A stretch of 63,420 nt of DNA, filler included, from Dugesia japonica (Eukaryota): assembly GCA_001938525.1 (NCBI GenBank). It is 6 parts of 6 records of this genome, joined end to end, with 100 filler letters (N's around TTAATTAATTAA, not from the genome) between each part and the next. Parts side by side here need not be neighbours in the genome. Positions count along the whole stretch, not along the records: positions 1 to 10,478 come from MQRL01604707.1; 5 more parts are not named here. One strand, 5' to 3'. Shown piece by piece: positions 1 to 63,420 of this stretch. Position 1 is the stretch's first letter, and each line of letters starts with the position of its first letter. The translations under genes were made by a program, and so were the position numbers. The notes beneath the pieces were generated by a model. The model saw only the letters and a list, made by a program, of their open reading frames with translations. It ran no database searches and was not told the origin of the DNA.

Positions 1-423
1 TCGTGCTTACTTACGCCATTCTATTTGCCTTAATCCGGTGTTTCACCTCAACAAAATACTCTCTCTTTTGAAAAGAATTCCGTCCCGGAATCTAATACTC
101 TTGTTGACTTTATTTTCTCTGATGGTTGCTCGTGTGCTTTTTTGCTCCGATCGGTTTCCATGCTTTAAAACCTAAAATACATTTATAATAACATTTAGAT
201 TCACCTTCACTCAATAGGTCATGCATTCAGTTGACTACAGCAATCTCAACAATATCTAGAAAGATCGACAGAAAGGATAAGATCAGTATAGAATAACTAA
301 GAACTAATCAGTATATCATGCGTACTAGACAATACATGGACCTTTAAATTCAATATACAACATTTATAACATAGTTTACATTATACACCGATATTTATAG
401 TTAATATATCATAAGTTTGTTTA

Positions 424-1790
424 TTAGACCAAATTTCCTGTCAATCTACGAAGTGGTGAGTAGCGACTCTCGTTGCTTCCTTCTGAATAGATTATGGAAT
501 CATCTGATGGTTCATTGAATGATTGGTTCTGCCAGATAGGGCTTATTATTGCAATGGAGTTTGCTGGTGCTGCTTTGTTCCAGATTTCGTTATAATTTGG
601 TTTTGGAGCTTGGATTTGATCGATTTTGTTTATATTTAGATTTTCATCTGCTCTGGTTTCCAGTTCTGTTGACGATCTGTTAGCTGCCCGTAGAACGTTT
701 CTCTTTCCTCAAATATTTCCAATGATTTTTTATTAGTTGCTCTCTGTTCTTTTATGGTTTTCTCAGATAATAGTTAAAAGTTTTTACATTGTATTTGGCT
801 TGACCGTAAGGCTTCTTCTAATTGAGATATATGTTTTCGGCTGAATGACATTCTTCTTTGTAAGTGTGCCAACTCTGTATCCCTTAATATCGTTGCATCT
901 CTTTTTTCTCCCATTGCTTTATCTGCTAATAACTTGAAATTTTGGCATTGTACTTGACTCATTCGTAAAGCTTCTTCTAATCTGGATATCCGGTCATCAT
1001 ATGCATTACGTCTTTTCTGCCAATCTTCTGGCACTGTCTGATAATTATCTTGTTCCACTTGTGTCATTAATTGGTTTCCATTTAAACTATCCGGCGTTTC
1101 TACTGTTTCCTCTTCCTTAGTTACTTGTAACATACCCAACTTGTTTGATATTTCTATTATTATAGCTAAGTCTTCACGACTTGCTTTAAATCGGCACATT
1201 CTTATGGTGTGTCCGGTTCTTCCACAGTTGAAACATCTAGGAATACCACATTGTTCTGCCAGATGACCTCTTCCTCTACACTTAGTACAATGTTTGTCCG
1301 GTTGGTATACTATTTCAGTATGTCCTTTGCGGCCACATTTTTTGCATTTTAACCCACATGAAGCTATCATGTGGTCTCTTTTTCCACATCTTGGGCAACC
1401 TTCCCGTCTAAAGGTAGGTTCGATATCTGATTCTTTTTTACACTGTTTCTCTGTATGTTCTAATTTACTACATAATTTGCATGGTTTTTTCCAACATAGT
1501 TTCTTTGGATGATCTGATTCCCCACAATATTCGCATAGTCTATTTTTCCAGCACCATGTTGCCAAATGTCCAAGTTTACTGCATGCACTGCACTTATAGT
1601 TTTCTTTTTGTTTAGGCACTGTGGGTTTCAGTGTTACTCCTTCTGGTTCATCCCAAGTTTTTAACAACAATTGTATTGCGGATTTCGTCCTCTTTCCTTG
1701 TTCTCTGAATTTCGATAGCCTTGACTTTAGAACATTTTCAACTATTGCTTCTACCGATACTTTCCGTACTGAGTTGGTTACCTCTTCCAA
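424..1790 (-). pseudogene. Seven-knuckle CCHC array, internally repeated coiled coil and C-terminal tail
   Basis: ORF 774-1790 has 7 CX2CX4HX4C-type motifs (one degenerate). The repeat ISRLEEALRMSQVQCQNFKLL / ISQLEEALRSSQIQCKNF*LL suggests the stop at 774 is a point mutation. The tail WNKAAP...SNESRYSPLRRLTGNLV* is conserved in the copy at ~41590-41750. Confidence 0.75.
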
Positions 1791-1814
1791 CTCCTTTAAC
1801 TGTAACGTTAATAC

Positions 1815-2948
1815 TCATAACAGTTCTTCCATTTGATCTGTCAGATCGTTGTTTAACGATAATTGTGACTCTTGATTTGAGTTTAACTTTGTTATATAGT
1901 TTATTTGTTCTTGGCTACGTTTTTGGTTTATTTTAGTTTCTTGAATATTTAGAGTGTCTACTTCTGATAACTGGTTACTATTTTTCGTTTGTCTAATTGT
2001 TTGTCTTCCCTTTTTCATTTTTGACACTACTTCTGTAAAGACATCTGATTGTTTTATTTCTACAGTTTCTACCTGTAGCATGCAAAAATTAACCGAGTCG
2101 GACTCCATATTTTCTTGTTCTCCTCCCTTGCTGTGGTGAATTTGTGTTGGTTCTTTCCTAGTCCTTTTTCTCTTATTGCTACAATTTTTTGATATATGTC
2201 CTTTTCCGCCATAGCAGTGGCATATTCTATCTGCCCAACATTTTTCTTCTATATGTCCTTTCTTTTTACATATTTTGCACTTTTGTATACTGACAATGAT
2301 CCGCCGTTCTTTTTCTACGAGTTTTAGTATCCTTATTATTAACACGGTCTTTTCGTCTGCTTCTTCAGGCATTAGATTTACTTTGTGAGTTATTTTTTTA
2401 AATTTTTGTAGTTGCATTGTTACCGTTCGCCGTAAGTCTTTAGATGGATTCGAGATGTCGTCTTCTTTAATGTTCTTTTCATTCTTTGTTTTTCTGTTCA
2501 TTGTCGATCTTGGTTCTTGCCACTTTGATACTATCTGTTCGTTAAATAATGTTAATGCTCGGAGACCTTTCNNNCTCAAGCTTATCTTTAATCGATTTAG
2601 ATGTCGGTTATTTCGTCCATCCCCTTTATTTTGGACGAATATATTGATTCTAGCGTTTTTCCAGAGTCCCCCTTATTGTACTGGGTCCATGAACTCACTG
2701 TCAAAAAGTGTAGAACCGAAGTATAATTCTTCCGTTTTTTTATCTGTCTGTTCTATTGGTTCTTGGTTGTTATTTCTAATCAATTCCGCTATATCGCACC
2801 AGCGATAATTTTCTGATATGATCAGTTTTATCTTATTGCAAAGCCATAAAACTTTTATTTTAAGTGATTCTGATTTTAAACCTAATAACCTTTGGGCTTG
2901 GTTATATACCAGCTCCTCTAATAACACTTGGTGTTCTTGACTAACCAT
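1815..2948 (-). pseudogene. Post-protease segment of the element polyprotein with 2 CCHC knuckles
   Basis: ORFs 2673-2948 and 1815-2579; CKICKKKGHIEEKC and degenerate CHCYGGKGHISKNC. Confidence 0.65.
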
Positions 2949-3224
2949 TGGTTTAAAATTATGTAGAGCTCCGATGAGTTCTGCTGTGCTAGCTGAAATC
3001 AGTTGTTTATTCTGACTTATTACTTTGATGACCTCCTGGTTTTTATTTTCATAGTTTCTTTAGCCAGAAAATTTTGATACCGGTCTTCCAAAAGGTTTTT
3101 GTCTTTTCCTAGATTGGGGTTTTCTTACCTTACTTGCAACATGCTTAACATTTCTGATTTTGGTTTTTCTGATTCGATTTGAAATGTAATCTCGAATCCA
3201 ATTTGGAATCCAATTTTGTCCCAA

Positions 3225-3510
3225 TTAACAATTTTGGCATTAAATCTGTTCCTAATACTGCATCTACATTGGTTTTCATCACAAGGAATTAGTGCTTTAT
3301 TGTCTTTTCTTGAAGTTGTGCATTACACTCTAATGTTCCATTGATCTGCAAGGTTTCCCCGTTAACACCTGTTGCTCTGGTTGTATAAGGTTTTTTTTCT
3401 TTTCTCTTATTTTGGGATATATTTTTTATATTCACCATTGATCGCGATGCTCCTGTATCCAACAGTGTTTTCATTGATTGGTTGTCAATTCTTATGATCA
3501 ATGAAAAGCT
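3225..3510 (-). pseudogene. Retropepsin (aspartic protease) domain
   Basis: IRIDNQSMKTLLDTGASRSMV ... VDAVLGTDLMPKLL, with one internal stop. Confidence 0.9.
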
Positions 3511-3599
3511 AAATCCGCCATCTTGAGTTTCTATTCCGGTTATTTGCTCATTCTGTTACTCTTCCTTATTTTCCGTGTTTATTGTATCTTCTGGAGTTA

Positions 3600-4793
3600 T
3601 TTTATTCTCCTTTTGCTCGATTTCCTCTGGGGAGCTTTCTCCTTCAATGAGTTTTAGCTTAGCTAGGGCTTTTCTTAGTCGAGTGATTCTTTGATGATTC
3701 CTTTTTATTTGATCACGTAACTGATGGTTTTCCTTGGATAGGGTTCTTGCTACCCTTTTATTCCTTGTATTTTCAGCATCTTTATCTTGTCGTAAATGAT
3801 ACCATTGTACATTTTTGATTGGATAACGATTTTCTTCGAAGCTACGACTTCTTCTGGCTTCTGTTAAAGTCCTTGGTCCTGCAAGGTCTATTCTGTGTCG
3901 ACATAGTCTTGCGATATGACTCTGTTTTCCACAGATGTAACAAACTTTATTTTTTATTTGACAATCTTTAGCTTGGTGACCTTGTTTGTTGCAATTGTAA
4001 CATTTTTGTACTCGCTGAGTCTTTGGTAATACCTCGTTAATACCTAGGCTCTAGGTACTTTGATTCTTAGCATGTGCAATTTTGTTGATTCTTTACTTTG
4101 GTTCACACTTTTTTGGCTTTGAGTTGNNNNNNNNNNNNNNNNNNNNNNNNNNNNNNNNNNNNNNNNNNNNNNNNNNNNNNNNTTCTTCGGGGTGCCCTTT
4201 CTTTCCGCATTTACTACAATATCTTTGCCAGCATTTATCCATGTGGTGATTTTTTCAACCACAAACGCTGCAAAATGTATAGATGATTGTACACTGATTG
4301 GTACTGTGGTGAGTCCTCCGACAATTTTGGCATCTATTCTGTTTATCCATTGTATCTTGACTAAAGGTTTCTTTTCCGATAATTAATCGTTGTTCTGCTA
4401 ATGCTTTATTAATTGCTTCTGCTTTTAATATAGCAGTGGTCAAATCAAGAGGTTTGCTGGAAGCTACATGGCTTCTTAATAGTAGGTTTCGCAGGCCAAT
4501 CTGAAACATCTTATTATCATTTGTTCATTTGTTAAGCCTGCTAATCTTGACAAATCTATTAGTGCGGCTGCAAATTCTTGGAAGGTTTCATTTTCCCTTT
4601 ATTTCCTTCATGCCAGTTGTTCATATAGTCCCCAAATACGTTTATTTTCTCGTTTTTTTACTGTTCATTCCTCCATCACTTTGTTAGCAACTTTTCCTGC
4701 TTTCTTTCTTTCTTGAATTATGGATGTCTTATCTGCTTCTGTATGTAGCATATACAGTCTTTCCGGTTCATTGTTCTTGGTTAGTTTTTTACA
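3600..4793 (-). pseudogene. Second Gag-like module: capsid C-terminal-like domain plus 5 CCHC knuckles and a coiled coil (stops and frameshifts)
   Basis: Manual translation: LYEQLA*RK*RENETFQEFAAALIDLSRLAG...MFQIGLRNLLLRSHVASSKPLDLTTAILKAE; CQNCRRTHHSTNQC, CSVCG*KNHHMDKC, CSKCGKKGHPEE, CYNCNKQGHQAKDC, CYICGKQSHIARLC. Confidence 0.75.
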
Positions 4794-4878
4794 NNNNNNN
4801 NNNNNNNNNNNNNNNNNNNNNNNNNNNNNNNNNNNNNNNNNNNNNNNNNNNNNNNNNNNNNNNNNNNNNNNNNNNNNN

Positions 4879-5565
4879 CCGATGCCCAGTTTTTTGACAA
4901 TAACGACAGATGAGTGGTGCATTCGTGCAATCCTCACTCTTATGCCCTTTTCGTTCGCATCTTCCACATTTTTTCTTTATATAATGGCAATCATTTTCCT
5001 GATGACCATTGCGTCGACATTTACTGCATCGTCCTGGTCGTGGAACTGGCTCTGATGTTGCTGGTTCATATTCCTGATGCATTTTAATAGCTTCTTCTAA
5101 TGTTTGCGGTTTTCGATTTTTGATGAATGGTTGTAATTTTTTATCCCAGATTCCTTCAATATAGGGGTTGATGCATGCACTATCCTTTTCTGGGGACCAT
5201 TTTTCCGTCGGAAGGAGTTGTCTAAACCTGATAGCATATAATATTGGACTCTCTGCTTCTTGCTGTTTGCAGTATAGTACTTCTCGCAATGCTTGCTGGA
5301 ATTCTCTTTGGATTTCAAAGTTTTTTCGTAATAATTGTTCTATAGCATTCCGTGATTTGAACAGTTCACCTATAGCCCTTATCTGATGTCTGTAGAGTAT
5401 TTTTGCAGTTCCTTCCAGGTGAAGTGGTGTCATATTGATTTTGTCTTTTTCTTCCCACTCAAAAGCTTTGGCATGCTCTTCATGGCTTAGGAGGAACACG
5501 TTATTTTCTTCGGGGTTACATTTGAAGGATTCACCGTGATATCGTTCTAATGATTTTCTTTGCAT
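4879..5565 (-). pseudogene. gag: Gag module 1: capsid-like domain plus 3 CCHC zinc knuckles
   Basis: LHLEGTAKILY...CKQQEAESPILYAIRFRQL...YIEGI..KKLQPFIKNRKPQTLEEAIK, then CSKCRRNGHQENDC, CGRCERKGHKSEDC, CRYCQKTGHR (runs into an N gap). Confidence 0.85.
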
Positions 5566-6059
5566 ATTTCTAAAAGAAGATATAATTACATACTAATTTA
5601 CTTGGATAGTGTCAATTGGTACAACGATTTCCGACTCGATTGTACTTGCTCCAGTGAATTTTTGGTACCTGTAACACATAAAAAAATTATTTTTTTTTAG
5701 ATAATCCCCGCTACTATTTACCCTTTAATCTAAGTCATACACTTGTTAAAGTCATTTTTCATCTCTTCACTCACCCTCGGTTTTTTTAGATTCGACGTCT
5801 TCGTCGAACTCTTTATTAGGGCTGCTAATTAATATTTACTCGTTTTTTTGCTGATTTTCCATCACTGGGGTTTATTTTAAAATCGCATTTTAATCCTATG
5901 ATGTCTTTCGTATTTATTCTGCAGTGACTGACTGATTTTGTATTTATTATCAATTTTTACTTTGATTCAATTAGCTAATTTTATAGCTTGATTTAAAATC
6001 GAATATTACATTTGATGTATTAATTGCTTTATTACCTATTAGTAGTTTGTTTATGAGAT

Positions 6060-6780
6060 ACAATCACTCCGTTATAATTTAATATGCTTATGAAAAATAA
6101 TACTTTTGTAACTCCCCCTTCTAGACACAATTTTTGTTTTACTTATGAAATGCAATAATCTTTGTAATTTCGCTTATGAACTGTAATGATCTTCATATAA
6201 CTTTGTTGTCTAAAACGAAATATATCTTTGGAATTTGCTTCTGAAATACGATACTTTACGCAATTTGCTGCTGAACTGTAATGGTCGTTGTATACTTAGC
6301 TGTCTAAAACATAATATCTTTTCGTGATTTTTTCTTGAAATACAATATTTGTTTGCAGTTTGCTTCTGAACTGTAACAATTGGTATATAACTTTGTCTAT
6401 CACGTCATATCCTTTTATAATTTACTCTTAAAATGCAACACTTATTCACAATTTGCTGCTGAACTCTATCCGTTATAATTTACCCTTGAAATACAATACT
6501 GATTCGCAATTTGCTGCCGAACTGTAACACATAATATCCTTTTATAATTTACTCTTGAAATACAATACTTATTCGCATTTTGCTGCTGAACTNNNNNNNN
6601 NNNNNNNNNNNNNNNNNNNNNNNNNNNNNNNNNNNNNNNNNNNNNNNNNNNNNNNNNNNNNNNNNNNNNNNNNNNNNATAATACTCTTGAAATACAATAC
6701 TTATTCGCAAATTGTGCTGAACTATAACAATCTTTATATAACTTTATCTAACACATAATATCCTTTTATCATTTACTCTT
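6060..6780. repeat. Degenerate tandem array in the element leader (~31-32 bp subunits in ~93-95 bp higher-order units)
   Basis: GAACT(G/C)TA recurs at ~6178, 6273, 6368, 6461; subunits of the form TTGAAATACAATACTTATTCGCAATTTGCTGCTGAACT. Confidence 0.85.
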
Positions 6781-9700
6781 CAAGCTTATCTGCAAATTGT
6801 TTATGTTTGGAATAACCAGAAAATGTTTTGCCGATTTGATCCGAAGGAGACGATACTATTCGTTACCTTCTTGAATTGCCTTTGGCTTGTACCGGCTCAT
6901 AAAATAATTCTGGTGACGAATTAGTTGGTTGTAACCAGTAGCTGTTGCTACTATGAGACTTGTATAAGCCTACATCTGAATTGATCGTGTCCTCTGAAGT
7001 GTAGTGAATACGTCCTAGAAGTAAGTGTACTACCGTTACTGACATCTAAGATTCGTTACCTTGTATAAGACGTGGACGGTTTGTCGGTTTCCACCGAGAC
7101 TGGTTTTCCCTTCCGGTCCCATCGCTTTCCTCATTTTATAACAGTCATAACTACTCGAGCAGCTTTTGCTGCGGACAACTGAGCCGATCGTATCTCAGAT
7201 GTCTCGTTGATCAGACCAATTTCACAACTGCTAATCTCGACTAGTATGATAGTTGAGGCTTCTTATTGTACTAAGTCTTCCTGTGGGTTATGTTAATTTA
7301 ATTTTGTCACCTTCCTTGCTCCTAGTCACATTTTCTGGCCAAGCTTGTGAGGTAGGAGGACCCCCCTGTGAACCCTTACTTTATTTCATTTTTATTTCCA
7401 ACATCATTAATTTGCTTATACGTATCACTCTAAGATCCACAGTTCACATTAATTTCACTATTCTTACTTTACTCATCTTGAATTTGCTTTATTCTTAACC
7501 ATACTATACTTAATTTATTNNNNNNATATATACTTAACTCACTTACTTAATCTTAATCTTGATATACTCTATTTTCGTTTCATACTCGTAATCTTACTCT
7601 CTACTAATTTCAAGGTTCTTAATTTGCTTAAATCGTGATAGACTTTAAAAACGCTTTACTTTAAGATTCCGAATTTCATTTTAATATTCTGAACTGGTTT
7701 TTATCATGATATACTTTATTTTAATACATTTGCTTTATTTTAAGATACTGAGTTTAATTCCAATATCATTCCTTTGCTCATTTTACTTTAATCTGTTCCA
7801 TCTACTTTAGAAAGTTGAATTTACCCTAACTTTAATATTCTTTATTTATTTTACTTAATATTTTTAATTTACTTTAGTTTTACTTACATTATAATGCTCT
7901 TAATTCACTTTTTTATGTTTGCTCTGATTTAATAATCGTATTACTGTGCTCAAATTACCTTAATTTATTTAATTTTACTTTTTATTTCATTTTGTTATTC
8001 TTATTTGGCTTTAATTTTACTTCCTTTAGTTTACTTTAATTTTAATTGATTTTGATTCTAAGATTCCTACTTTGCTTTAATTTTTACCCTTATTTTCTTA
8101 CTTCATTTTAGTTTCTTAATATACTTTACCGCGTTAATCTTAGTTTGCTTTAATTTTCATTATTCAATTTCAATTTTAGTACTAATACTTACTCTTAATA
8201 AAATCTTGTTTAATTTAATTTGTCTTTATTATTTTATTTTTATTTTATGATTTTATTACTAAATATCCTAATTTTAATTGTACGCCAGCTACCAATCGTC
8301 AACTCGCCAGACCAAAAAAAAATTTTTTTTTCTTTTGTATATTCGCTCGAGTTATTGTTGTTCTCTGTCCACGTAGTTTATTTTTATTTAAAATAAGAAA
8401 CAACCGTGTTGTTTACAAAAGTGTAAGTCACTGAATCGATTATTTTAATAAAATTTAACTGGATTCTTTTGGGTAGTATGGTCAAATTATTCAAATGAAG
8501 GAATAGCAAGTTTAATATCTTCGTTTTTGTCAACTTCTAATTTCGGGCAAATTGTTGTTCCATTGGAAGCGATGAATAAGAATTTTGTTGGTATTAGGGT
8601 AGGAAACATTATTTCTTTTTTACAGTTAAGATCAAGAATCTTGTCTTTTAGTGTAATGTTTATTCCTTCTGCTGCAATAATCGAAACGGAAATTATTGAT
8701 TCTTGGTTTAATCATTGTTTCTACAAAATTTAGAATGTTTAAGCTGGAAGCATTTAGCGACATCTCCATTGTTCTTATATTGCTACTAATGTTTTTCGCA
8801 AATCAATATTTGTCATGCAACCAGATCTAGTAATAATTGGTAATGAACCCCAGAAACCATCCAGCATTGGCTTTAATTATTTTGGGTAGTGTTTTGAAAG
8901 ATTTATTTCGTCATTGTTTATGCCCAATTGGTATTGCGCCACAATGGGTTCCAGACAGATAATTTATATTCCTTATTTCAATGCCTTATTTCACTATTTC
9001 AGTAACATTTATTTGGGTTTTCATTTTAATTAATAGCTTTATAGATACTTAGAAGAAGGTGTATATTTATCGAAGGTCAAGAGGTGTATTTCTTGATTTC
9101 CAAGCTAGATGAAAAGGAGAATAGGCAACGGTCCTTTTCAGGGCCATAATTATTGGTTGTTATTTTTTTTTGTTTTTCGACGAGATAAATCTACTTAGTC
9201 TTTTCATTTAATTGTCGTAAAACGAAGAGATCAAAAGTCTTAATTTTTTTTTAAATCTTTAATTTATGAAATTTTTTAGCTATATTCATAATTAATCTAC
9301 ATAGTTTATCTTTGATGGTTGTGAATTTAATTTAATTTCGTTAAATAATTTCAGTGATAATTTTAGTACTAAAATTACTTATTTGTTTTGTATATAAAGA
9401 TAATACGTAATTTACTTTTCTATTTGGTTTTGAGACCTAGAATTTCATTTAATTGAACGATTTGTTTTATTTTAATACATTTTATTGAATTAAATCATTC
9501 CAAGATACCATAGCGTAGTGGTAAAAATGGCCTTATTTTCTATTATTCACCCTTGAGCAACGGGTAGCTTTTAATTTATTTTATCCCAGTATTTTATTAA
9601 TATTCGCTTGAAGGGAATTAATTGTTATCATAATTTCTTGATAATATAGATGGCCATGTATTACATACATCTTTTTTAGGGCAGTTTATATCCGAATCAG

Positions 9701-10080
9701 ATGCACCTGAATTGTTTAATTTGCCAACTCATACCTCGATTTCTAGTACAGTCTGTTATTGAAAGAGCATTCATTTTCGAAGAAAATTGATATATCGCTT
9801 AAAATGATATTGGTAGTTAAATATTCCAGGACTTATGTCAATTATTAGGGCATAACAAATCACGTTTGCCTAAAATCGCATATTGGTAAGGTTAAGTCTT
9901 CCCAAAGATACCCTTAACTTATTTTAAGTCACCATGCTATTGTTATAAATTTTATGATTGAAATAACATTAATTTTAACCCTTTCTTTTTATTAAATTCT
10001 TTGCTTAATGTGGTTATAATATAAATTTTTTCTTTTAACTGAAACAACAGTTATATCCACTTGCTAAAATAAAGAACAAT

Positions 10081-10098
10081 ATCCCGGCTAAGCCCCCA
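10081..10098 (-). promoter_or_regulatory. Primer-binding site, tRNA-Pro type
   Basis: Minus strand TGGGGGCTTAGCCGGGAT, 7 nt after the LTR end ...CCCCAACA; 15/18 match to the canonical tRNA-Pro PBS TGGGGGCTCGTCCGGGAT. Confidence 0.8.
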
Positions 10099-10105
10099 AA
10101 ATTCA

Positions 10106-10478
10106 TGTTGGGGTTTTACCCTGGATAAGTTTATTTCTTATATGATTAAATCTAGGGGCGTCAAACTTTATATTAAATTAAGTCTAGGGTAATTGACCTG
10201 GTAAAACCCCGCGATGAATTTGAATCTGGTGTCCCCCTAAAATCCAGATCTTCGGAATGAAGCCGTTGACTCGTAGCTCGAGAACAGACTCGCATTCCTT
10301 TAGTTCGGATTCTTTTACATGATACTCGCTTAATTTTCTAATCAAAATTAGCTTTCACAATTATCCGCTAATAATTTTCCGCTATCCTATAATTGATTAT
10401 AATTTTAATAGCTATTTAACAATTCCGAAAAACAAAAGAACTTGTAAGTGAAAAATATATTATGATTTAAATTTCACT
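10106..10478 (-). repeat. 3' part of the 5' LTR of the large element
   Basis: Reverse complement aligns to 63080-63319 and 54878-55049; all end in CCCCAACA. Confidence 0.8.
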
Positions 10479-10578
10479 NNNNNNNNNNNNNNNNNNNNNN
10501 NNNNNNNNNNNNNNNNNNNNNNTTAATTAATTAANNNNNNNNNNNNNNNNNNNNNNNNNNNNNNNNNNNNNNNNNNNN
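10479..10578. other. Artificial contig-join linker
   Basis: N44-TTAATTAATTAA-N44 (stops in all frames), identical at five sites. Confidence 0.97.

Positions 10579-10646
<68 letters not shown>
10579..10646. repeat. (AAT)n microsatellite at contig edge
   Basis: Direct reading. Confidence 0.95.
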
Positions 10647-25679: not shown

Positions 25680-26524
25680 ACGCCACATACATTGAAGAGG
25701 GAAATAATTGGACGAAAAAAATACATTCTTGAAATAATCGACCAGTACAGTAAATATCTGGGTTTTATAGCATTTGCCTAAACAAGACGAGGAAACAATA
25801 CGAAAATCTATTTTTGAAAAGTGGATATTGAGATTTGGATGTTCAAGATAGATAAGACTAGATTGTGGAAAAGCTTTTGAATCCAGAATTATGAGAGAGT
25901 TTGCACTGAAGCTAGATATTAAACTTTGCTTTTCGAGTCCTTATCATAATAATGCAAACGAAAAATTGAAAGACAGTTAGGAGAATTAGAGATTTGATTA
26001 ATGCAACACTTCAGGAAAGAAAGACAACAGATTTGGGAGATATTTTATGGGAAATATAATTTACAATGAACGTGACAAAGCATAAGACGACTGGCTCATA
26101 TTTGGAAAGAAAATTAACAGAAAAGTGTTGAGTTTGACGTTTCAAGTAGAACTAAAGAAAACTCTAACAGAGAATTCAAAGTGGGCGATTTTGTACTCAT
26201 CGCGGTGGAAACACGAAATAAAAGTCAAAACAGAAGGACCTTATCGAATAATTGACAACATTCATGAAAGACAGTATGCGGTACAAGGAGAAAATGGATA
26301 GCAATTAGAAAGAAATGTGGAAAACCTAGAAAGTTTCTTAAGAAGCGGGATATAAGGAAGTAATTATTAATTTCAACGAATAGAAAGTGATTAAATTTAA
26401 TATTAATATTTAATTAATTNTAATCACTTATAATTATCTAATCTTATATTGTTGTAGTAGTGAAATAAATAAATTATTAGTTGTGATTTGGAAAATAAAT
26501 TATCAATTGAAGATTTACCTAACA
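25680..26524 (+). mobile_element. Gypsy integrase relic, purine-rich PPT-like tract and short 3' LTR (~26351-26524)
   Basis: KYILEIIDQYSKY...WILRFGC..IRLDCGKAFES...FSSPYHNNAN; AGAAGCGGGA precedes a ~170-bp repeat ending AACA that recurs (rc) at ~16210-16315 and ~57845-58030. Confidence 0.8.
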
Positions 26525-36190: not shown

Positions 36191-36290
36191 NNNNNNNNNN
36201 NNNNNNNNNNNNNNNNNNNNNNNNNNNNNNNNNNTTAATTAATTAANNNNNNNNNNNNNNNNNNNNNNNNNNNNNNNNNNNNNNNNNNNN
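36191..36290. other. Artificial contig-join linker
   Basis: N44-TTAATTAATTAA-N44. Confidence 0.97.
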
Positions 36291-38315: not shown

Positions 38316-39515
38316 AATCGTTTAATTTTTAAAAGAAAATTATTTTATGGTGTGCACCGATTAGAATATATTCAATTTAATGTTATAAATAGTGACCAAT
38401 GAAAATTAATCTTAATAAGATTAATGTAAATTGTGTTTCTATTTAAACGTTTATGAACAGAATGAGTTAAACAATAACTTCTGAAGATGGTATTGCCGAA
38501 ATATTGAACAATCAATGCAACTAGAAGAATATAATTTTGATTTTTAAAATTAAAATTTAAATAAAAATTAGTCAATCCAAATATTTTATAATTTTAAAAA
38601 AACTTATAATAATCCATAATTAGATAATTTATGTAAATATTAAACACGATTTATTAAAATTAAATTTTTTAAATTTAAAAATTAATTTTTTAACCATAAA
38701 TCAGTTTGATAAATAAAATCTTTTAATAAAATAAAATATTTTTTACAGTTGCAATTATTGCAAGAATAATTGTTGGACATAATCATTGTTCGTTTTATAG
38801 AATTCAGTTACATTGAAAGCTTCGATCAAAATTTGTTTTTTAGAAAAATACTGTCAGTTCTTGACGAAGACAAAGTAGAAAATTAGAATTATTATCCACA
38901 ACAAAAAAATTTTTGATTTTAATTAATTTGAATGATTTTGAAATATAAACAATTTTTTTATAATATATTTTATAACAAAATATAATATTGTTTTCGCGAA
39001 TATTTTCAAGCCAAAATTTATAAACTCATTTACTAAAAATTTACATTTATTAATAAATATTTAATGTTTTACTAACAATTAAAAATGAAATATTCTTCAT
39101 CAAAATATTCTACTGATTAATTAGTAAGTAATTTAACAATTTCAATATTTTATGCAAATTTCTAAATTAATTAAAAATTTATTTGAAAAATGTGTGTGGG
39201 ATATTTTTAATAATTATTAATATTTTAGTAAAATCTATTATTAAAAACTTGTTTTGGGGAAATTGATTTTAATTTTCATATTTAATATTAATTTTAAAAT
39301 ATTCTTTTGAATCGAATTTAATGTTAATAAACACGTGGAAATGTAAATAAATAATTTTATTTTTTGCTTATTTAAAATATTATTTAAATTGGTTCATTTG
39401 AAAATTAATAGAACTTTAATTAAAGTATATTTAATGTATATTTTTTAAAATATATTGAAAATTATATTTACATATATAAATTAAAATTTTTTAAGTAATA
39501 ATAAAATAATAAAAA

Positions 39516-40214
39516 ATGGAAACGGAAATGGAAAAGCTACTTAATTTAATGAGTTCTAAATTTTCAACAACTATATCAGCATAATCAAAAACATCTGAAT
39601 TTAAAATTGATTTTCTTACACCTATAGAATTAAATAACGATTTTAATTATGAATTTGGATTATTCTGGTTTAGTTGTTATAATACTATTTTCAATATTAA
39701 TAATATTAGTAATAAATTTCAATTAAATGATAAAGTAATCACAATTACCCCTGGAGCCTATGAAATTAAAGAATTAAATGAAAAGCTTAAAATATTTAAA
39801 ATGGAAATTAAAGTTGATTTATCTACATCTAAATGTGAATTAACTATTCCAAAAGATCAACTATTATTGAAAACACATCTTTCTTTCATATAATTCTCGG
39901 ATTTAATCCATGTATTTATAATAATGCAGGAAAATATAATAATATTCAAATAATAAATATTACAACAATAAATATTTCTTGTGATTTAATTAAAAGTAAT
40001 TATGTTAACGGTAAAGAAGAAAATGTTTTATATTCTTTTCCTATTTATACACTGTTCCCTTTGGTTTTAAACTTGTTGAAAGAATGTCTAATCCTATCTA
40101 TATTCTAAAACGTTAATTGAATCAATAATGATTTCTGTTGCCGATGAATATAATAATTTAATAGATTTTAACGGCGAAACTATTAGTATATTTTTACATT
40201 TAAAACAGGTTTAA
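39516..40214 (+). pseudogene. Minor capsid (penton) protein of a Polinton/adintovirus-like element
   Basis: METEMEKLLNLMSSK...FKIDFLTPIELNNDFNYEFGL..YNTIFNIN..ITITPGAYEIKELN...ILGF...INISCDLIKSNYVNG..VLYSFP...DEYNNLIDFNGETISIFLHLKQV*; has a stop and frameshifts. Confidence 0.8.
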
Positions 40215-40269
40215 TAAAATAAAATTAATTACACAATACTTGATTTCTTTAAAACATGCAGAATTAATA

Positions 40270-40660
40270 CTAAAACAAATTTTGATTTAAAAGAATATTC
40301 TATTCAATTAAATTTACTTGTTAAAATATTATTGAAAGATGAGCTTTATAAATTAAAGACAACCAAAAAACATAACGTAATTATTAATTATCAAAGCCCT
40401 AATAAAAACAGTTCTCATTGGGTTTGTTTTAAAGCGGCCTTCAGCCTAGAGCAAAGCTCGACCAAATATATATATTTTGATTCATATGGTTTTCAACCTA
40501 CAGATGAAGTAGAAGCTTTTTTAAATAAAGATTATTTTTATGACAAAATATAAGTACAACCTAATAATACAAATATATGTGGTATATTATGTCTTTATGC
40601 TTAATACATGTAAAACAATACAGATATTTCTTTTCATAAAATTATTGATTCTTTTTACTC
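40270..40660 (+). pseudogene. Adenain-type (C5) cysteine maturation protease
   Basis: TNFDL...KDEL...IINYQSPNKNSSHWVCF...YIYFDSYGFQP...VQPNNTNICGILCLY: His, Asp, Gln and Cys motifs in the expected order. Confidence 0.85.
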
Positions 40661-40688
40661 AGATTTGGAAAGTAATTTATCGACAAAA

Positions 40689-41100
40689 ATGAGTACTTTT
40701 AGTCCTGCAAGCAAATCTAGTTCAACTTTTCAGTTAAATGATTTTAATTTAGAAGATGCTATTAAATATACTGAAGCTAAATTAGCTAAACCTTTAGAAT
40801 ACAAGTTAAATAATAAAATTACTAATGAGATAAATAATCTTGATAAAAATTATATAAATGAATTGGATGATAAATAGAAAATCTAGAAGTTATTCAAGAA
40901 CCTAAAACTGATAATGATTTTGTAAATAATAAATATTTAAAGAAATATACTGATCAAATTAAAAAGGATATGGATAATAAAATAAATTTTAGAATAGATT
41001 CACTTATTACTAGAGTGAATGAAATAATTAAATCTAAAATAACAAATTTTAAAATTAAATTAGATAAAGAAATTAAAGATCTAATAAATCTAATAAAGAT
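40689..41100 (+). pseudogene. Polinton-associated coiled-coil/fibre-like ORF relic
   Basis: Follows the protease on the same strand; NLEVIQEPKTDNDFVNNKY resembles the I.NL..P....DAVNK.YVD motif of viral fibre-like proteins. Confidence 0.4.
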
Positions 41101-41160
41101 CTTAAGTCTAAATTCTTCGCTTTCTTTTCTGACGACAATTTTTAATTCGAGTCTACTTGT

Positions 41161-41749
41161 CGCCATTTTTATTTTCGGTACCCGGTGTTTCACCCTAACA
41201 AAATACTCTCTCTTCCGAAAAAATCCCGTTTTGGAATTTAACGCTCTTGTCTAATCGATTCTTTGTCTTGTCTCTTTATGGTTGTTCAATGTGCTTATTT
41301 GCTCTGATCGGTTTCCAGTCCACTGATGATTCCTAAACGACAATTATGATAACACTTAAATTCACATACACTCAGTAGGTCATACATTCATTTTGACTAC
41401 AGTAGTTTTAACAGTGTCTAAATTGATAGAGAGCACAAGATCAGTATATAACAACTAAGGATTAATCAGTACATCATACAACACTAGATATATACACGAA
41501 CCTTCTAATTCAACATACCACATCCATTACATGCTTTACATTATAAACCGATGTTTATAGTTAATTTATCATAAGTTCCTTTTGATTTATCAGACAAAGG
41601 TTCCTGTCATTCTACGAAGTGATGAATAGCGACTCTCATTGCTTTCTCCCGAATAGATTATTGAGCTGTCTGATTGTCCATTGAATAATTGGCTCTGGTA
41701 GATGGGGCTTATTATTGTAATCGGCTTTGTTGGTGCTGCTTTGTTCCAG
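41161..41749 (-). repeat. Diverged copy of 15-584 (C-terminus and 3' region of the large element's polyprotein)
   Basis: Colinear similarity; the minus frame LWNKAAPTKPITIISPIY...SNESRYSSLRRMTGTFV* is retained with synonymous changes. Confidence 0.9.
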
Positions 41750-44700
41750 AGGATGATAAATTAGAAACCCAAACCGTATGCATGATGATTTCCCAGCGCG
41801 CGAAACTTTTACAAAAAAGACTAAAAATAGACAGACGATGGGTAATTGCCATTATCGATACGGGAGCAAGTACGACGTTCGTCCACAAAAGAATATTAGA
41901 AGATTAACGACTACTCCGAATAACAATTACTAAAGGAGTTATCATCACAGCCTCTGGAGAAAATATCTTACCCGTTGCGAAAGCAATATGTGCAATAGAA
42001 AGTGACGGAATCCGTCTATGGCATAAACTACAAATAATGAATGAACTAACTTTCGATTGCTTATTGGGACTGGATCTCTTACCACGACTATGCCCACAGG
42101 GAATATTAGATTTGAGGAAACTAACGATACGGGAAAATCATGATCGAGAATATGCGCCAGTAGGTTATCAGAAAAGTCGAATAATAACGAAACAAAAACG
42201 ACCACAGCAGTAGAATCAACCAACTTCCAAACAACAACCGCGACTCTCATCAGGCAGAGGTGAGCAAAATAACTCAAACTGAGATCGTTGAAAAACTTCC
42301 GACATATCCACCATGATAAGAAACTATTGGATAAGGTTTCAGGAACGAGAACTAAGATGGAAAAACAAATAACAACCTAACACCAATCGTAACCCTTCGG
42401 AGGTGGTATGCGCAAGTCTCAACGCTGGACTTGAATTAACAATTACGGTTAAAATCAACGGTAGACCTACAACGGCATAATTAGACACAGGAGCAAAAAT
42501 CTCGTTGTTATCAATAGAAGAAATCGCAATAACAGAATATAAAAACATATTACCCACTAATACCACGGCAGATGTGGCAAACAGAAGCAGTCTTAAAATT
42601 TTCGGGAATTAGATTGTGAAGTAGAATAAAAGGACAAGAAAATTAAACACAATATGATAATAGTAGAGATAGCAGGACAGTGTATTTTGGGTACGGATAT
42701 TCTCCCAATTTTAATGAAAAATGGAATACTAAATTTCTCAACGCTACGGTTACAATCCCGTGAATAGTTTACTCACATTAAAGATCACGAAGTATTCACA
42801 ACAGAAGAGATCTTGGTGCCTAGTAGATGCCAAGTATATTGTGTAGTAAGTAACAAAAGTGTATACGAATGCGATAGTGTTTTTGAACCTTATGACGGAT
42901 TTGCACAACAGTATGAGTTACCTACATTAGGAGGAATAATCACGGTCAATAAAAACGGAGAAGTACCAGTGAGCTTGTTCAACTTCACTGAGAAAGATAT
43001 CACAATAAAACCGAATTCTAAGATGGGTACACTAACTCCCATTTAACTAGATACTAACGAGATAGAAGAAGTAATTGTCGAACCGGTAATAGATAGGACT
43101 TGAAAATTGTGGAAACAGAAACACTATCAGATGATCAAAAACAGGCAATGTTACAATTCTTGGAAGAATTCAGAGATATTTTTGCATGGACTGATGAAGA
43201 ACCAGGTATGTGTACAGCTACAATGCACACAATTTCCTTAACAGACGAAATCCCAAGCAAATAGAAACCATATGCCATGACAGTGGAGAAAAAAAAGTTT
43301 GCAAACAAAGAAACGGCTAAATTAGTAAAAATCGGTGTGATAGAACCCAGTTGCTCACCATGGCAGTCCCCATTGATGTCAGTGGATAAAAAAGACGGGA
43401 CACAGCGGTTCTGTATCGATTTCAGAAGGTTAAATGTGGAAACTAAAAAAGGTACGTATCCACTACCAGACATCAATGAGTTGTTACAGTTACTGCGTAA
43501 CGCTAAAATATTCACCACATTGGATTTGCAAAGCGGATATTAACAGATACAAATTAAACAAAAGGATAGGGAAAAACAGCTTTTTCCAGGGGCAAGGATT
43601 TGTACCAATTTATCCGTATGCCATACAGGCTTACAAATGCATCAGCTTCTTTTCAACGAATGATGAATTATATAACTCATGGTATATCTCAATGTATGGC
43701 CTATAATGACGATCTATTGATCTATTAACCAACATTTGAAGGACATTTCAATGATTTACGTAGTGTGTTTATCCGTTTGCAAAAATGGAACTTGAAATAT
43801 AAACCTACCAAGTGATAATGGGCTAAGAATAAGGTAACGTACCTCGTACATTTTATATCGGACAAAGGAAAAGAGCCTGATCCTCGAAATACTGAGAAAA
43901 TACGAAATCTAGCACCGCCAAATTGTGTGCTTAAAATACAAGAATTTCTCGGCCTCGCAAACTAATATCACAAATTCCTTAAGGATTTTGCTAAAATTGC
44001 GAAACCGATGCAGGAATTGGTCAAATAATATACTGCATTTATATGGGGATTAGAGCAACAACAATCATTTGAGACATTACGAGATAAATTATTATTTGTA
44101 CCAATTCTAATGCATCCGGATTTCAAAAAACTATTCATATTAGCCACTGACGCTAGTATTTATGCGATTGGCGCTGTATTAAGCCAACTAGATGAATAAG
44201 GGAGGGAAAGAGTGATAGCATATTTTAGCAAGAAATTTCAAGGAGCAGAGTTAAATTACAGCAATTCAGAACGCGATATAATGGCTATTGTGAAAGCTAC
44301 CAAACATTTTCGATCACTTATACATGGTCACGAGGTGTTAATCTATACGGATCACTTACAAATCCCATTCATAACTTAGAAATCATTACGATGGAATAGA
44401 ATGGAAAAATGGCAGCTAGCAATGCATGATTATTGTCCTCTGTTTAAGTTTAAAATGGGTAAAGTGAACTCAAATGCTGACTGTCTGTCGAGAATCGGGA
44501 ACCAGAAGTTACTAAAACAAGCACAGGCTGATGGTGAGGAGATCAAGAGCATCACGAAATATATGGAAAGTTACTATTTAGAGACGTTAGAATGCGAACC
44601 CAAGATGAAAGAGCACTTAAAGAAAAACGGCGGTCATTATGCATTTAACAAATAATGGTTGACCGCTCAGGATGGAGAAGATACCATGTTAGGTATCGCT

Positions 44701-45560
44701 AAAGCAAGACGGGATAAATTACTCGAACAATATCATAATGGCATACTAGGAGAACACATGTCCCATAAGAAAACCGAGTCAAAATTAAGACAGAAATATT
44801 ACTGGCCACACATAATGGAATCTGTGAGGGAATGGATTGCCAAATGTCAAATATGTGCTGCCAGACGAGGAACAGGCAAACGAGTGAAGGCACTATTAAA
44901 GCCAATAGCTGTACCTGCCACACCTATGGAAATAATAGCTATGGAGGTAGTTGGATAATTACCACCAACATTGAGTGGAAACATTTATATACTAACAATT
45001 ATGAATTACTTGTAGAAATTTCCCGAAGAATTCCCGATGAAGAACCAAAAAGCAACCACCATAGCGGATATTTTAGTACGAAATGTTTTCAGCAGATATG
45101 GCACACCCAAGAAAAGATTGACCGATCAAGGGAAAAATTTCATGAGCACTATATTAGCAGAGATATCGAACTTCATCAAAAAACACCAGTTACGGACATC
45201 GCTGTATCATCCACAAACAGATGGATTAACGGAAATATTTAATATAACTTTGATCTATATGCTACCTAGTTATGCTCAGAAGGAACAAAATAATTAGGAT
45301 AAAAATATTCCAGCTACTAAATATACTCCTTTTAGATTGATGTACGGAAGAGAATGTAATATGCCAATTGATTAAGAATTTAAACCACCAATAAAGCAAA
45401 ACCAGGACAAAACGAATTTTGCCGAAATTTCAAAGAGACGATGCAGCAAATCTAGAAACCGTCTAAAGAAAATGTAGGATTTTATCAAGAAAGTTACAAG
45501 GACCTCCACGATAAAATGGCAATGCAACATTCCCTTAAAAAAGGCGACATTGTGTTGATA
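41750..45560 (+). mobile_element. pol: Decayed Ty3/Gypsy pol: protease, second protease, dUTPase-like linker, RT, RNase H, integrase
   Basis: IIDTGAS..LLGLDLL (41830-42080); LDTGAK..CILGTDIL (42440-42710); SPWQSPLMSVDKKDGTQRFCIDFRRLN, TLDLQSGY, AYNDDLL; LATDASIYAIGAVLSQ; H..GEH..YYWP..CQICA; LTDQGKNF, YHPQTDGLTE. Confidence 0.92.
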
Positions 45561-46307: not shown

Positions 46308-46407
46308 NNNNNNNNNNNNNNNNNNNNNNNNNNNNNNNNNNNNNNNNNNNNTTAATTAATTAANNNNNNNNNNNNNNNNNNNNNNNNNNNNNNNNNNNNN
46401 NNNNNNN
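46308..46407. other. Artificial contig-join linker
   Basis: N44-TTAATTAATTAA-N44. Confidence 0.97.
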
Positions 46408-46700: not shown

Positions 46701-47359
46701 TCGGATGTCTTTGCATACTATTTATTTGAGTGAGGTCGATCCAACATAAATTTCAGAACATAAAAATCATTTCATTAAGATTTGAGAGTTCAATTTCAAA
46801 GTTATTTTTTTAAACTTCGTCATTATTTAACAATTGAAATGTGATTTTTTGAATTTCATTGAAATGAATTGAAATAAAATGATAGATATATAAAGATATT
46901 ATACAAAACAAAAACTTCAAAAAAATCTTTTTTTAACTTTGGAACCAATCTTTTGATTTTCAGTGTATTTATATGAAAAATGGAGTTTCGTTTTGCGTGG
47001 TTTTTTGTTTTCAAGATGTTTCTCCGGTTCCAGTTAATCACGCAAACTGAGGTATTAGTATATTTGTATAAAATTTATTTTTGAAATATACATTTAATTA
47101 TTTTAATAAACTCAAATAAATGGAGATGGCTATAATTAGTAGAAAAATTAATAATTTACTCGGAGGAATTGTAAAAATAGATTTAAAATAAGTGATATCA
47201 AGAAATTTTAATATTGATTTGTTTGAATTCAATAGTAGACTTAATTGTGATTTGAATTTTAAAAATCCAAATTAAAATATTAAAATTTTAGTAATTTGAA
47301 TTTTGGTTAATAAATAAATTTAAAATAAATATTTTATTTCTTAAAATTTTCTCAGACTG

Positions 47360-54590: not shown

Positions 54591-54690
54591 NNNNNNNNNN
54601 NNNNNNNNNNNNNNNNNNNNNNNNNNNNNNNNNNTTAATTAATTAANNNNNNNNNNNNNNNNNNNNNNNNNNNNNNNNNNNNNNNNNNNN
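54591..54690. other. Artificial contig-join linker
   Basis: N44-TTAATTAATTAA-N44. Confidence 0.97.
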
Positions 54691-54877: not shown

Positions 54878-55049
54878 TGAACCCAAACCAAAGGAGTGCG
54901 AGTCTGTACTTGGATTCCGAGCCAATGGCTCCATTCCGAAGATCTAGATTTTTTGGGACGCCAGATTAAGTTCTTCACGGGGTTTAACTAGGCTGATCAC
55001 CCTAGACTAAATAATTAAAAAATTAACCCACCTAGATAAAGCCCCAACA
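54878..55049 (+). repeat. LTR 3' fragment of the large-element family
   Basis: GGAGTGCGAGTCTGTACT...CCATTCCGAAGATCT...CCCTAGACT...GCCCCAACA. Confidence 0.8.
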
Positions 55050-56499: not shown

Positions 56500-56990
56500 T
56501 GTAAACTGGAGAAAAGATAGAAGATCTATATGTGGATCGTATGTGGACCGTTCAAAGAGACTACGGAGAAAGAAATACATTCTAGCCATAATAGATCACT
56601 ATATTAAATATATTTCATTATCGGCCATAGGAAGAGGAAACCATATGCAAGATAATTAATGAAAAATTATTACTAAGGTTTGGAGCATCAAAAAAGATAC
56701 ATACTGATTGCGGGAAGACCTTCGAATCAAAGGCGTTCAAGGATATGGCATGCAGATTGTACATAGAACTATGTTACTCGAGCCCATACCACCACGGGAC
56801 AAATGGCTAGGTTGACAAACAAATCAGAACCATCAGGGACTACATAAATGCATCTGGATAAGCAAATTGGGGCGAAAAGATTCTTGAATTAGAGTTGATG
56901 ATAAATGCCACATATCAAAAGACGGTTAAAACTAGCCATCCTGTACGGAAGAGATTTTCGAAGAGAACGATGGATCGATTATGAAGCGGT
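56500..56990 (+). mobile_element. Gypsy integrase relic (related to 25680-26350)
   Basis: IIDHYIKY..LLLRFGASKKIHTDCGKTFES..YSSPYHHGTNG*VDKQIRTIRD. Confidence 0.8.
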
Positions 56991-63079: not shown

Positions 63080-63319
63080 ATGATTTGTAAATCAAGCGAG
63101 TATTATGAACTATGGACCCAAACCGATGGAGTGCGAGTCTGTACTCAGATTTCGAGTCAACGGCTCCATTCCGAAGATCTGGATTTTTGGGGACACCAGA
63201 TTCAAATAAATTGCGGGGTTTTACCAGATCAGTTACCCTAGACTTAATTTTATATATAGTTCGACCCCCCTAGATTTAATTATCTAGGAGATCAATTCAC
63301 AAAGGGTAAAACCCCAACA
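63080..63319 (+). repeat. LTR 3' part of the large-element family
   Basis: Aligns to rc of 10106-10345; ends GGGTAAAACCCCAACA. Confidence 0.85.
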
Positions 63320-63348
63320 ATAATAATAATAATAATAATAATAATAAT
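63320..63348. repeat. (AAT)n tract between an LTR end and a probable LTR start (TGTTGGG at 63349)
   Basis: CCCCAACA-(ATA)n-TGTTGGG. Confidence 0.85.
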
Positions 63349-63420
63349 TGTTGGGTTTTTAGGATTTTGAAATAATCTAATATCGTTGTTTTTCATAATC
63401 GAGCATTGTTACGAACAAAT

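Follow-up and report, generated by a model that had tools for sequence, protein, structure and literature searches.

A much-repeated LTR retrotransposon of Dugesia japonica with a poly-knuckle Gag-protease reading region and no reverse transcriptase

The DNA analysed here (the window) is a stretch of 63,420 nt from Dugesia japonica, assembly GCA_001938525.1. Positions 1-10478 (MQRL01604707.1) are a decayed copy of a much-repeated LTR retrotransposon that has cis signals at both ends and lacks reverse transcriptase (RT), RNase H and integrase. On the minus strand it consists of an LTR end, a primer-binding site (PBS), a leader of about 4.5 kb, a decayed reading region of about 5.2 kb, a polypurine tract (PPT) and the start of the 3' LTR. 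The internal region, from LTR to LTR, measures about 10.05 kb. The reading region encodes, in order, a capsid, three CCHC zinc knuckles, a likely second capsid, five knuckles, a retropepsin, two knuckles, seven knuckles and a coiled-coil-like tail.

The element is a non-autonomous, TR-GAG-like member of the Ty3/gypsy order with many genomic copies. Its LTRs are accompanied by a PBS and a PPT, it encodes Gag plus an aspartic protease, and RT, RNase H and integrase are absent. Membership in Ty3/gypsy is indicated by a Ty3/Arc-type capsid and a retropepsin, the latter being sister to the protease of a gypsy-order pol. Taken as a whole, the evidence makes it probable that the element moved by packaging its own RNA and borrowing enzymes from an autonomous Ty3/gypsy helper. 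Repeat libraries may already contain the family.

Ends of the element and absence of pol

The 3' part of the 5' LTR occupies 10106..10478 (minus strand) and terminates in CCCCAACA at 10113-10106; the LTR start is lost in a scaffold gap at 10479. Positions 10106-10344 are 82% identical to another LTR end, located at 63081-63319 and running on into (ATA)n, and contig depth reaches its maximum for the stretch at 10106..10478. After a 7-nt spacer comes an 18-nt PBS (10081..10098, minus strand), recognized by its sequence, which agrees at 15 of 18 positions with what is presumed to be the 3' end of tRNA-Pro. Contigs from two runs cross 9782-10106.

At about 6130-6790 the leader (5593..10080, minus strand) carries 94-bp and 69-bp tandem repeats, and at 7400-8330 its sequence is of low complexity. 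Many fewer copies share its part at 7700-9800, where X1 depth is 69-1,173, than share the coding region. A Pfam scan of 12 frames in 6780-7400 and 8330-10080 gave no match, and neither did Rfam. A decayed protease considered at 8480-8999 is not supported, 64 of 500 shuffles scoring as high.

At the other end, an 11-nt PPT (59..69, minus strand) stands 5 nt ahead of the 3' LTR, whose start, TGTTGAGG, lies within 1..53 on the same strand and is cut by the window edge. This start matches the inverted end of the 5' LTR at 7 of 8 positions. The same PPT is found at 41216 in a second copy of the element, and in both window copies the distance from the stop to the PPT and 3' LTR start is about 355 nt. 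A PPT plus an LTR-like start arose in 9 of 20,000 shuffles of the 3' 423 nt. The two LTR pieces of this element do not overlap in the window. Both LTR termini were observed beside (AAT)n, and one X8 contig continues from the homologous terminus (41201) into letters resembling a TAA repeat. The PPT and LTR start at 69-53 fall just beyond 424..10478, the interval covered by the initial annotation, and had gone unnoticed there.

Profiles built from 70 proteins each for RT, RNase H and integrase gave no match above 4 bits in 1-10478; the same profiles score 107-252 bits on the pol at 43115-45474 in the window. The initial annotation's claim that more than 10 kb pass without RT is thus upheld with sensitive profiles. 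It had also left pol either to a downstream ORF or to supply in trans: the PPT and LTR start that follow the stop speak against the former, and the latter was the right branch.

Giant LTR elements do exist, among them Ogre in plants and Burro in planarians, and on the downstream-ORF branch of the initial annotation this would be a giant autonomous Burro-like element with its pol further downstream. A long leader with tandem repeats is indeed drawn for Burro in the part of PMC6431247 consulted, where Burro elements also have accessory ORFs and, like the pol at 41760-45560, a dUTPase or dUTPase-like domain between protease and RT. That reading nevertheless has become very improbable: each of the two copies has a PPT and LTR start after its ORF, and Pfam shows no MATH, BCL2, BIR, ankyrin or env match in the reading region, about 900 nt after the protease being left with no assignment. 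The env of Burro was seen via HHpred, according to the same passages (PMC6431247). With an internal region of about 10 kb, and a PPT and 3' LTR start some 355 nt past the stop, the label "giant" has to be given up. At this size the proposed adaptation to packaging a very long RNA loses its basis as well, unless the protein acts on a long helper RNA too.

The Gag-protease reading region

The description of the LTR end, tRNA-Pro-type PBS, 4.5-kb leader and decayed coding order given in the initial annotation is borne out on the minus strand, and its view of the coding part as a multi-module, poly-knuckle Gag-protease region is supported by the domain order and by Pfam matches. All modules below lie on that strand.

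Capsid module 1 (5020..5592) is of the Ty3/Arc type. It matches Pfam Ty3_capsid with E 3.5e-6 (27 bits, slightly below the cut-off of 29.1) and Retrotrans_gag with E 0.012, and its best match among solved structures is an Arc capsid C-lobe (E 0.21). A fold predicted from the single sequence reached a pLDDT of 41.5 and had no structure match at E 0.001.

A likely second capsid module occupies 4414..4793, with a part resembling a capsid C-terminal domain (CTD) at about 4631-4414; it contains three stops and a frameshift near 4505. Aligned to a CTD profile with HHalign over 71 columns, it scores 22.2, compared with 10.9 +/- 2.0 for shuffles, none of 200 scoring as high. HMMER gives 7.0 bits, equalled by 11 of 1,000 shuffles. 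A whole-capsid profile gives no signal (157 of 300 shuffles as high), nor do BLASTP and Pfam. The first 94 residues are modelled from the single sequence as helical (pTM 0.32) and match generic long helices only, with no capsid among the 50 matches listed; this model weighs neither for nor against a capsid fold. A second CTD-like module is thereby moderately supported at the level of sequence, so that the duplicated capsid of the initial annotation stands on the CTD profiles and not on the whole-capsid profile, BLASTP or Pfam. A third capsid after the protease was tried and rejected, three segments being equalled by 25, 17 and 4 of 100 shuffles.

The knuckles number 17, of which 13 are perfect, two are cut by N gaps and two are degenerate; the motif count confirms the annotated layout of 3 + 5 + 2 + 7. 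Ordinary Ty3/Gypsy Gag has one capsid and 0-3 knuckles (usually 1-3), and RT follows the protease. The 13 strict CX2CX4HX4C motifs, one with an internal stop codon, compare with a mean of 0.0035 and a maximum of 1 in 2,000 shuffles. Knuckles 1-3 lie at 4879..5028, the third cut by the N gap 4794-4878, and knuckles 4-8 at 3901..4332, the sixth cut by the N gap 4127-4182. Knuckles 9-10 (2181..2279), the tenth degenerate, are followed by the seven-knuckle array 11-17 (1194..1592), in which the fifteenth is degenerate and spacing is mostly 17-19 aa. Outside the ligand codons, the knuckles are on average 40% identical in DNA, and 67% at most.

Between the first two and the last two knuckle arrays lies the retropepsin (3229..3495), with an intact DTG active-site motif, a Pfam RVP match of E 6.7e-7 and 55 bits with a local protease profile. 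The coding region after it (2280..3200), with a frameshift zone at about 3190-3060, does not stand out from shuffles with profiles of capsid, RT, RNase H or protease and has no usable match in Pfam, PDB or Atlas. An RT remnant in this position was discarded, 75 of 500 shuffles scoring as high. The region closes with the coiled-coil-like tail (424..1190), which has a frameshift zone at about 660-600 and ends in the terminal stop at 426-424. Within it, a 91-nt duplication (740-830 and 899-989, 70% identical) is the only internal DNA repeat in the reading region.

In 1,691 codons the reading region contains 17 stops, where about 124 would be expected. Its last 52 codons are stop-free in both window copies and end at the same stop; 16 of the 52 residues differ, the changes being 6, 9 and 12 by codon position, a pattern of weak constraint on the tail that counts against the packaging account. 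In other copies, one of 23 coding-region differences falls in a stop, among the 40 of 705 differences listed.

These figures bear on the view that the element is a LARD-like passenger spread by its cis signals alone, in which template switching left dead patches of gag and protease and the protein is idle. The modules are not recent duplicates, as the 40% knuckle identity and the confinement of DNA repeats to the tail indicate, the copy is broken, and the tail constraint is weak. All this would suit a passive mosaic. Such a mosaic would hardly keep about 5 kb nearly open on one strand, with 17 stops instead of about 124, 13 knuckles with all four ligands and an intact protease motif, nor does it sit well with all modules being repeated at similar depth. 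It is accordingly an unlikely account of the element.

Copies, assembly and a candidate helper

The second copy, a shortened 3' end (41161..41750, minus strand), comprises ORF tail, 3' UTR, PPT and a 3' LTR start at 41200, and is 77% identical to 14-584. Thirteen X4 contigs depart from it at 41750 into letters resembling the ORF of the first copy, which makes the junction with the neighbouring pol a local one. That pol was also considered as the native ORF2 of the element and rejected: it lies on the opposite strand and interrupts the ORF, and other copies continue into the ORF there.

Summed over contigs, depth is high in each of the 15 bins of 351-5600 (X1 72,178-483,631; X6 18,823-84,143), against a depth of 3-10 for identical pieces, which means that every module is repeated. 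Neither window copy, one of them partial, has pol at its 3' end, and coverage is deep for every module. Elsewhere in the family, deletion joints connect 922 to 1889 and 3387 to 3976. Two RNA runs placed 601 and 72 reads, nearly all fitting in part only.

With 39 N gaps, the assembly is fragmented, and among the contigs shown none bridges the gaps at 4127-4182 or 4794-4878. If these gaps joined different elements, the layout of two capsids and 17 knuckles would not be that of one molecule. This is quite unlikely: the gaps are short and sized (56 and 85 N), a form that sets them apart from the 44N-linker-44N joins, a knuckle motif is interrupted at each of them, and strand and depth agree on both sides. 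Moreover, the stretch 54-4126, gap-free with only 3 N, by itself contains the protease, 11 knuckles, the stop and the PPT.

A possible source of enzymes is found in the window. The pol fragment at 41760-45560 is arranged protease-protease-dUTPase-RT-RNase H-integrase, and its protease 2 (42430-42740) is sister to the protease of the element (support 92/92, branch not starred). The two score 58.9 bits at an identity of only 30%, the next best of 50 outside proteases scoring 45.1. This relationship makes the lineage of the pol a candidate helper; no LTR common to it and the element was seen.

The proposed cycle would start with an RNA running from LTR to LTR. Its reading region would be translated as one polyprotein, or a few, and cut by its own protease into one or more capsids and several nucleocapsid-like knuckle arrays. 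Binding with high avidity, the arrays may capture the element RNA and anneal tRNA-Pro to it as primer, which would favour it over helper RNA in mixed particles, and helper RT and integrase would complete the cycle. Recombination between distinct gag genes in the distant past likely brought the modules together.

A more ambitious version of this proposal, which can be held only tentatively, is that an animal lineage of non-autonomous LTR elements acquired a composite protein for packaging. One selected polyprotein would then unite two capsids, four nucleocapsid arrays (17 knuckles) and a protease, and with it the lineage would have out-competed its autonomous helper for particles and reached high copy number in (AAT)n microsatellites. 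Such an element would parasitize other retrotransposons and, rather than shrink, would invest in its packaging.

Truncated Ty1 Gag is known to control copy number. By analogy, the protein could be a decoy that joins helper Gag in assembly and sequesters RNA or protease, curbing the helper, or it could shield RNA from piRNA silencing. A capsid with many RNA-binding knuckles and no enzymes might fit a dominant-negative product, and the PIWI control of planarian gypsy-type elements, as given in the relevant part of PMC8532177, counts in favour. Full cis signals and many copies better fit selfish spread, and a decoy is therefore very improbable beside packaging with borrowed enzymes.

Loss of coding sequence is the usual course in non-autonomous LTR elements. 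The present element has no pol, yet its structural gene is several times the normal size of gag, with far more knuckles than the usual 1-3. If the layout is under selection, it offers a natural test of knuckle number against RNA packaging preference, as well as of tandem-capsid Gag assembly and of the competition of defective elements with helpers.

Comparison with known systems

In collections poor in animal repeats, none of 254 candidates was related to the capsid and longer proteins and none of 1,471 to the seven-knuckle ORF; viral contigs, metagenome contigs and plasmids held no relatives of the reading region, and Atlas gave no usable match (best 0.81). No description of a layout with 17 knuckles, two capsids and no pol was found in the portions of the literature searched.

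Tandem CCHC knuckles are typical of cellular proteins of the CNBP/Air1 type. The seven closely spaced knuckles resemble these, but the array sits in a retroelement polyprotein, and no homology to a cellular protein was found.

Closer comparison is offered by Burro1/GYPSM1 and Burro-2 to -4, giant gypsy elements of Schmidtea mediterranea with internal regions of about 20-25 kb (the following as in the Burro passages of PMC6431247). Burro1 has a single ORF of 4,873 aa with Gag, three knuckles, MATH, ubiquitin-like, BCL2, env, protease, dUTPase-like, RT, RNase H and IN domains; Burro elements in general have 2-3 knuckles. Shared features are the gypsy-like character, high copy number, a long leader with tandem repeats, Gag CCHC, and "Smc" coiled-coil and "AIR1" knuckle-rich motifs. 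The present element, at about 10 kb with 17 knuckles and no pol, differs from Burro1, which reaches 25 kb and has a polyprotein with pol; neither an internal region of 20-25 kb nor a polyprotein ending in protease, dUTPase-like domain, RT, RNase H and integrase is found in it. Compared by description only, its architecture is not that of the published Burro1 ORF (PMC6431247), an identity that the initial annotation had considered.

Against the probe for the planarian element GLT2 in Table S1 of PMC8532177, a 33-nt stretch matches 801-833, in the coiled-coil repeat, at 25 of 33 bases, a lead noticed by eye and post hoc. Over the first 400 letters of each GLT and GLT2 probe, nothing else alike is apparent by eye, and the coding part of the probe seems to have a higher G+C content (PMC8532177).

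The nearest parallel is with TR-GAG elements, a known mobile class of plants with only Gag, or Gag plus protease (PMC6022998, PMC13570524, in their TR-GAG passages). Both have LTRs, a PBS and a PPT around Gag and an aspartic protease, lack RT, RNase H and integrase, and occur in many copies. The same passages describe no comparable expansion of knuckles or capsids (PMC6022998, PMC13570524). The present element differs in its animal-like, AT-rich host and in an internal region of about 10 kb. Its coding part spans some 1,700 codons, has 17 knuckles in arrays before and after the protease, and includes a likely second capsid as well as a coiled-coil-like tail. If this layout is under selection, the TR-GAG strategy, known from plants in the parts of these sources consulted (PMC6022998, PMC13570524), extends to an animal.

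Ends of the element

All parts of the element, a decayed LTR retrotransposon copy at 1-10478, are carried by the minus strand. Its 5' LTR ends in CCCCAACA at 10106, and over 10106-10344 it shares 82% identity with a further LTR end (63081-63319), one followed by (ATA)n. Seven bases after the 5' LTR end lies an 18-nt PBS (10098-10081), alike in 15 of 18 positions to the tRNA-Pro PBS. An 11-nt purine run forms the PPT (69-59), about 355 nt past the stop and 5 nt before the 3' LTR start, TGTTGAGG at 53, which matches the inverted 5' LTR end at 7/8 positions. The 5' and 3' LTR pieces cover non-overlapping parts of the LTR. Since the PPT and 3' LTR start follow so soon after the stop, the internal region is about 10.05 kb. 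The initial annotation had proposed a giant element, which these ends contradict; that the element is giant and autonomous is scarcely credible.

An equivalent layout is found in copy 2, a second, truncated 3' end of the family (41161-41750, minus strand), which is 77% identical to the element and has TGTTAGGG at 41200. The window contains 22 LTR-like starts, and a purine run of at least 10 precedes three of them: those of the element (53) and copy 2 (41200), and one within the ORF at 2240. The combination of PPT and LTR-like start arose in 9 of 20000 shuffles of the element's 3' 423 nt. A single contig from run X8 departs at 41201 into TAA-repeat-like letters, as an LTR terminus lying within a microsatellite would be expected to do.

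LTR ends of related families also lie beside (AAT)n or similar repeats (63081-63420, 54879-55049, 10579-10646), and one (ATA)10 run (63319-63349) sits between two facing LTR termini; such positions suggest microsatellite targeting. Directly past the first ~100 nt of copy 2's 3' LTR is an AT-rich, multi-copy region with short plus-strand ORFs (39400-41100), without a match in a Pfam scan and with depth of 1,400-2,700 in DNA runs at 40600-41112. It is possibly another mobile element inserted into that LTR.

Coding region, one or probably two capsids, and absence of pol

The coding region runs from 5592 to a stop at 426-424 on the minus strand. The LTR end, tRNA-Pro-like PBS, capsid, poly-knuckle clusters and retropepsin are all present in the order first described. 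The Ty3 capsid match (Pfam E 3.5e-6) falls slightly below the family cut-off; that to retropepsin has E 6.7e-7. Counting confirmed 17 CCHC knuckles, clustered 3 + 5 + 2 + 7 (13 strict, 2 interrupted by N gaps, 2 degenerate), and no more than one strict knuckle occurred in any of 2000 shuffles. Read in seven segments, 1,691 codons contain 17 stops, the terminal one and those inside frame-switch zones counted in, against about 124 expected; frames switch near 4505, at 3190-3060 and at 660-600. The scarcity of stops, the domains and the knuckles indicate that the region once encoded protein; the copy seen here is dead. Knuckle DNA identity outside ligand codons averages 40%, so the arrays are old.

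The duplicated capsid of the initial annotation found support in some comparisons and none in others. The segment 4793-4339, with breaks read as X, scored 22.2 in HHalign over 71 columns of a profile of the C-terminal domain that combines capsid 1 (5020..5592) with nine outside Gag pieces; shuffled sequences gave 10.9 +/- 2.0, with 0/200 as high. HMMER gave 7.0 bits (11/1000 shuffles as high), the segment being one among six tested. A profile covering the whole capsid, built on seven outside sequences, found nothing (157/300 shuffles as high), but this profile is weak, giving capsid 1 itself 8.0 bits (0/300). No match came from BLASTP, from aligning sequences pairwise or from searches of Pfam and PDB, and single-sequence folds of the capsid modules carried no information on capsid fold. 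On balance, 4793-4339 is quite probably a second capsid. A third capsid after the protease gained no support from shuffle comparison.

Profiles from 70 relatives each detect no RT, RNase H or integrase in 1-10478, as the initial annotation had noted for RT; the same profiles score 107-252 bits on a pol fragment elsewhere in the window. A profile search for an RT remnant downstream of the protease was also without support. The element closes without pol. Of the earlier suggestion that pol is a separate downstream ORF or supplied in trans, the first part fails at the 3' LTR, while the lack of pol inside the element agrees with the second. Lone integrase-core fragments occur at 25774-25959 and 56637-56849 (plus strand; 23 and 39 bits).

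Copies and assembly

Contigs placed on 1-10478 number 28,113 in run X1 and 13,529 in X6, most of them 90-99% identical. Summed contig depth, which does not equal copy number, is high in 15/15 bins from 351 to 5600 (X1 72,178-483,631), and window-identical pieces reach a depth of 3-10. Each module is highly repeated. Other copies have deletion joints at 922 to 1889 and 3387 to 3976. Coverage of 7700-9800 in the leader is much lower (X1 depth 69-1,173) despite contigs spanning 9782-10106 at depth 106-164, marking the leader as that of a small subfamily. Within it, low-copy 8480-8999 (minus strand) looks like decayed coding sequence; it carries a few RNA reads and matches neither Pfam nor local profiles. 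RNA reads on 1-10478 (X22, 601, of which 578 fit partially; X21, 72, all partial) carry little weight.

An assembly chimera would join different elements at the N gaps 4127-4182 and 4794-4878, which no contig among those listed bridges. However, both gaps are short and sized, each interrupts a knuckle mid-motif, and 54-4126 by itself contains 11 knuckles along with the protease and the PPT; a chimera is improbable. The five unsized contig joins between records (10479-10578, 25239-25338, 36191-36290, 46308-46407, 54591-54690), each a TTAATTAATTAA linker with 44 N on either side, leave adjacency across them uncertain. The window also carries a TRAF-like host gene (47345-49317, plus strand) with RING, TRAF zinc finger, repeated coiled-coil exons and MATH domain, and a HECT ubiquitin-ligase exon (61449-61775, plus strand; E 9e-21).

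Proposed mechanism and known systems

The cis signals, domain order, absence of pol and many copies are demonstrated for the element. In LTR elements generally (PMC4558846), Gag packages LTR-to-LTR RNA, and a tRNA at the PBS and the PPT serve as primers. On this model, the element's RNA would be packaged and primed likewise; its own protease would cleave the polyprotein into capsid and knuckle arrays, and these would capture the element's own RNA in particles common with an autonomous helper providing RT and integrase. Such packaging with borrowed enzymes is the reading we lean towards. That the protein is a compound packaging protein selected for beating the helper in competition is doubtful. 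A passenger mosaic is unlikely, and a decoy role for the protein very improbable.

A candidate helper lineage is represented by the decayed, gypsy-order pol fragment (41760-45560, plus strand), in which a tandem pair of proteases is followed by dUTPase-like, RT, RNase H and integrase domains. It adjoins inverted copy 2, fused at 41750, where 13 contigs from run X4 depart with letters resembling the element's ORF, which makes the fusion a local one. The protease of the element and the second protease of the fragment are reciprocal best matches, at 58.9 bits against 45.1 and 48.1 for the runners-up, and pair as sisters in a tree of 53 sequences (92/92, not starred, bootstrap unsettled). Their 30% identity would indicate at most a common lineage, not a working partnership. 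The fragment's nearest outside relatives share about 44% identity over RT-RNase H, and two of them, P0009 and P0020, likewise carry a pair of protease motifs.

The family is so abundant that it is probably already catalogued. Literature searches, in a collection without most subscription papers and Repbase Reports, turned up no report of an LTR element with two capsids or many knuckles, and the portions consulted of PMC11410931, PMC13238120, PMC13172572 and PMC10954484 do not describe this layout. Identity with Burro, raised earlier, is not borne out: the element lacks two of the defining features in the reviewed description (PMC6431247), size and in-frame pol. The AIR1 and Smc labels in Burro-2 to -4 could refer to this family's knuckles and coiled coil. 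In GLT2, one 33-nt stretch among the first 400 letters of the published probe resembles the tail repeat by eye, a lead only (PMC8532177, Table S1). By the working definition of TR-GAG in the sections consulted of PMC6022998 and PMC13570524, which is Gag, or Gag and protease, only, the element belongs there with Gag and protease only. It thus appears to be a gypsy element of a TR-GAG-like, non-autonomous type whose structural gene is greatly enlarged.
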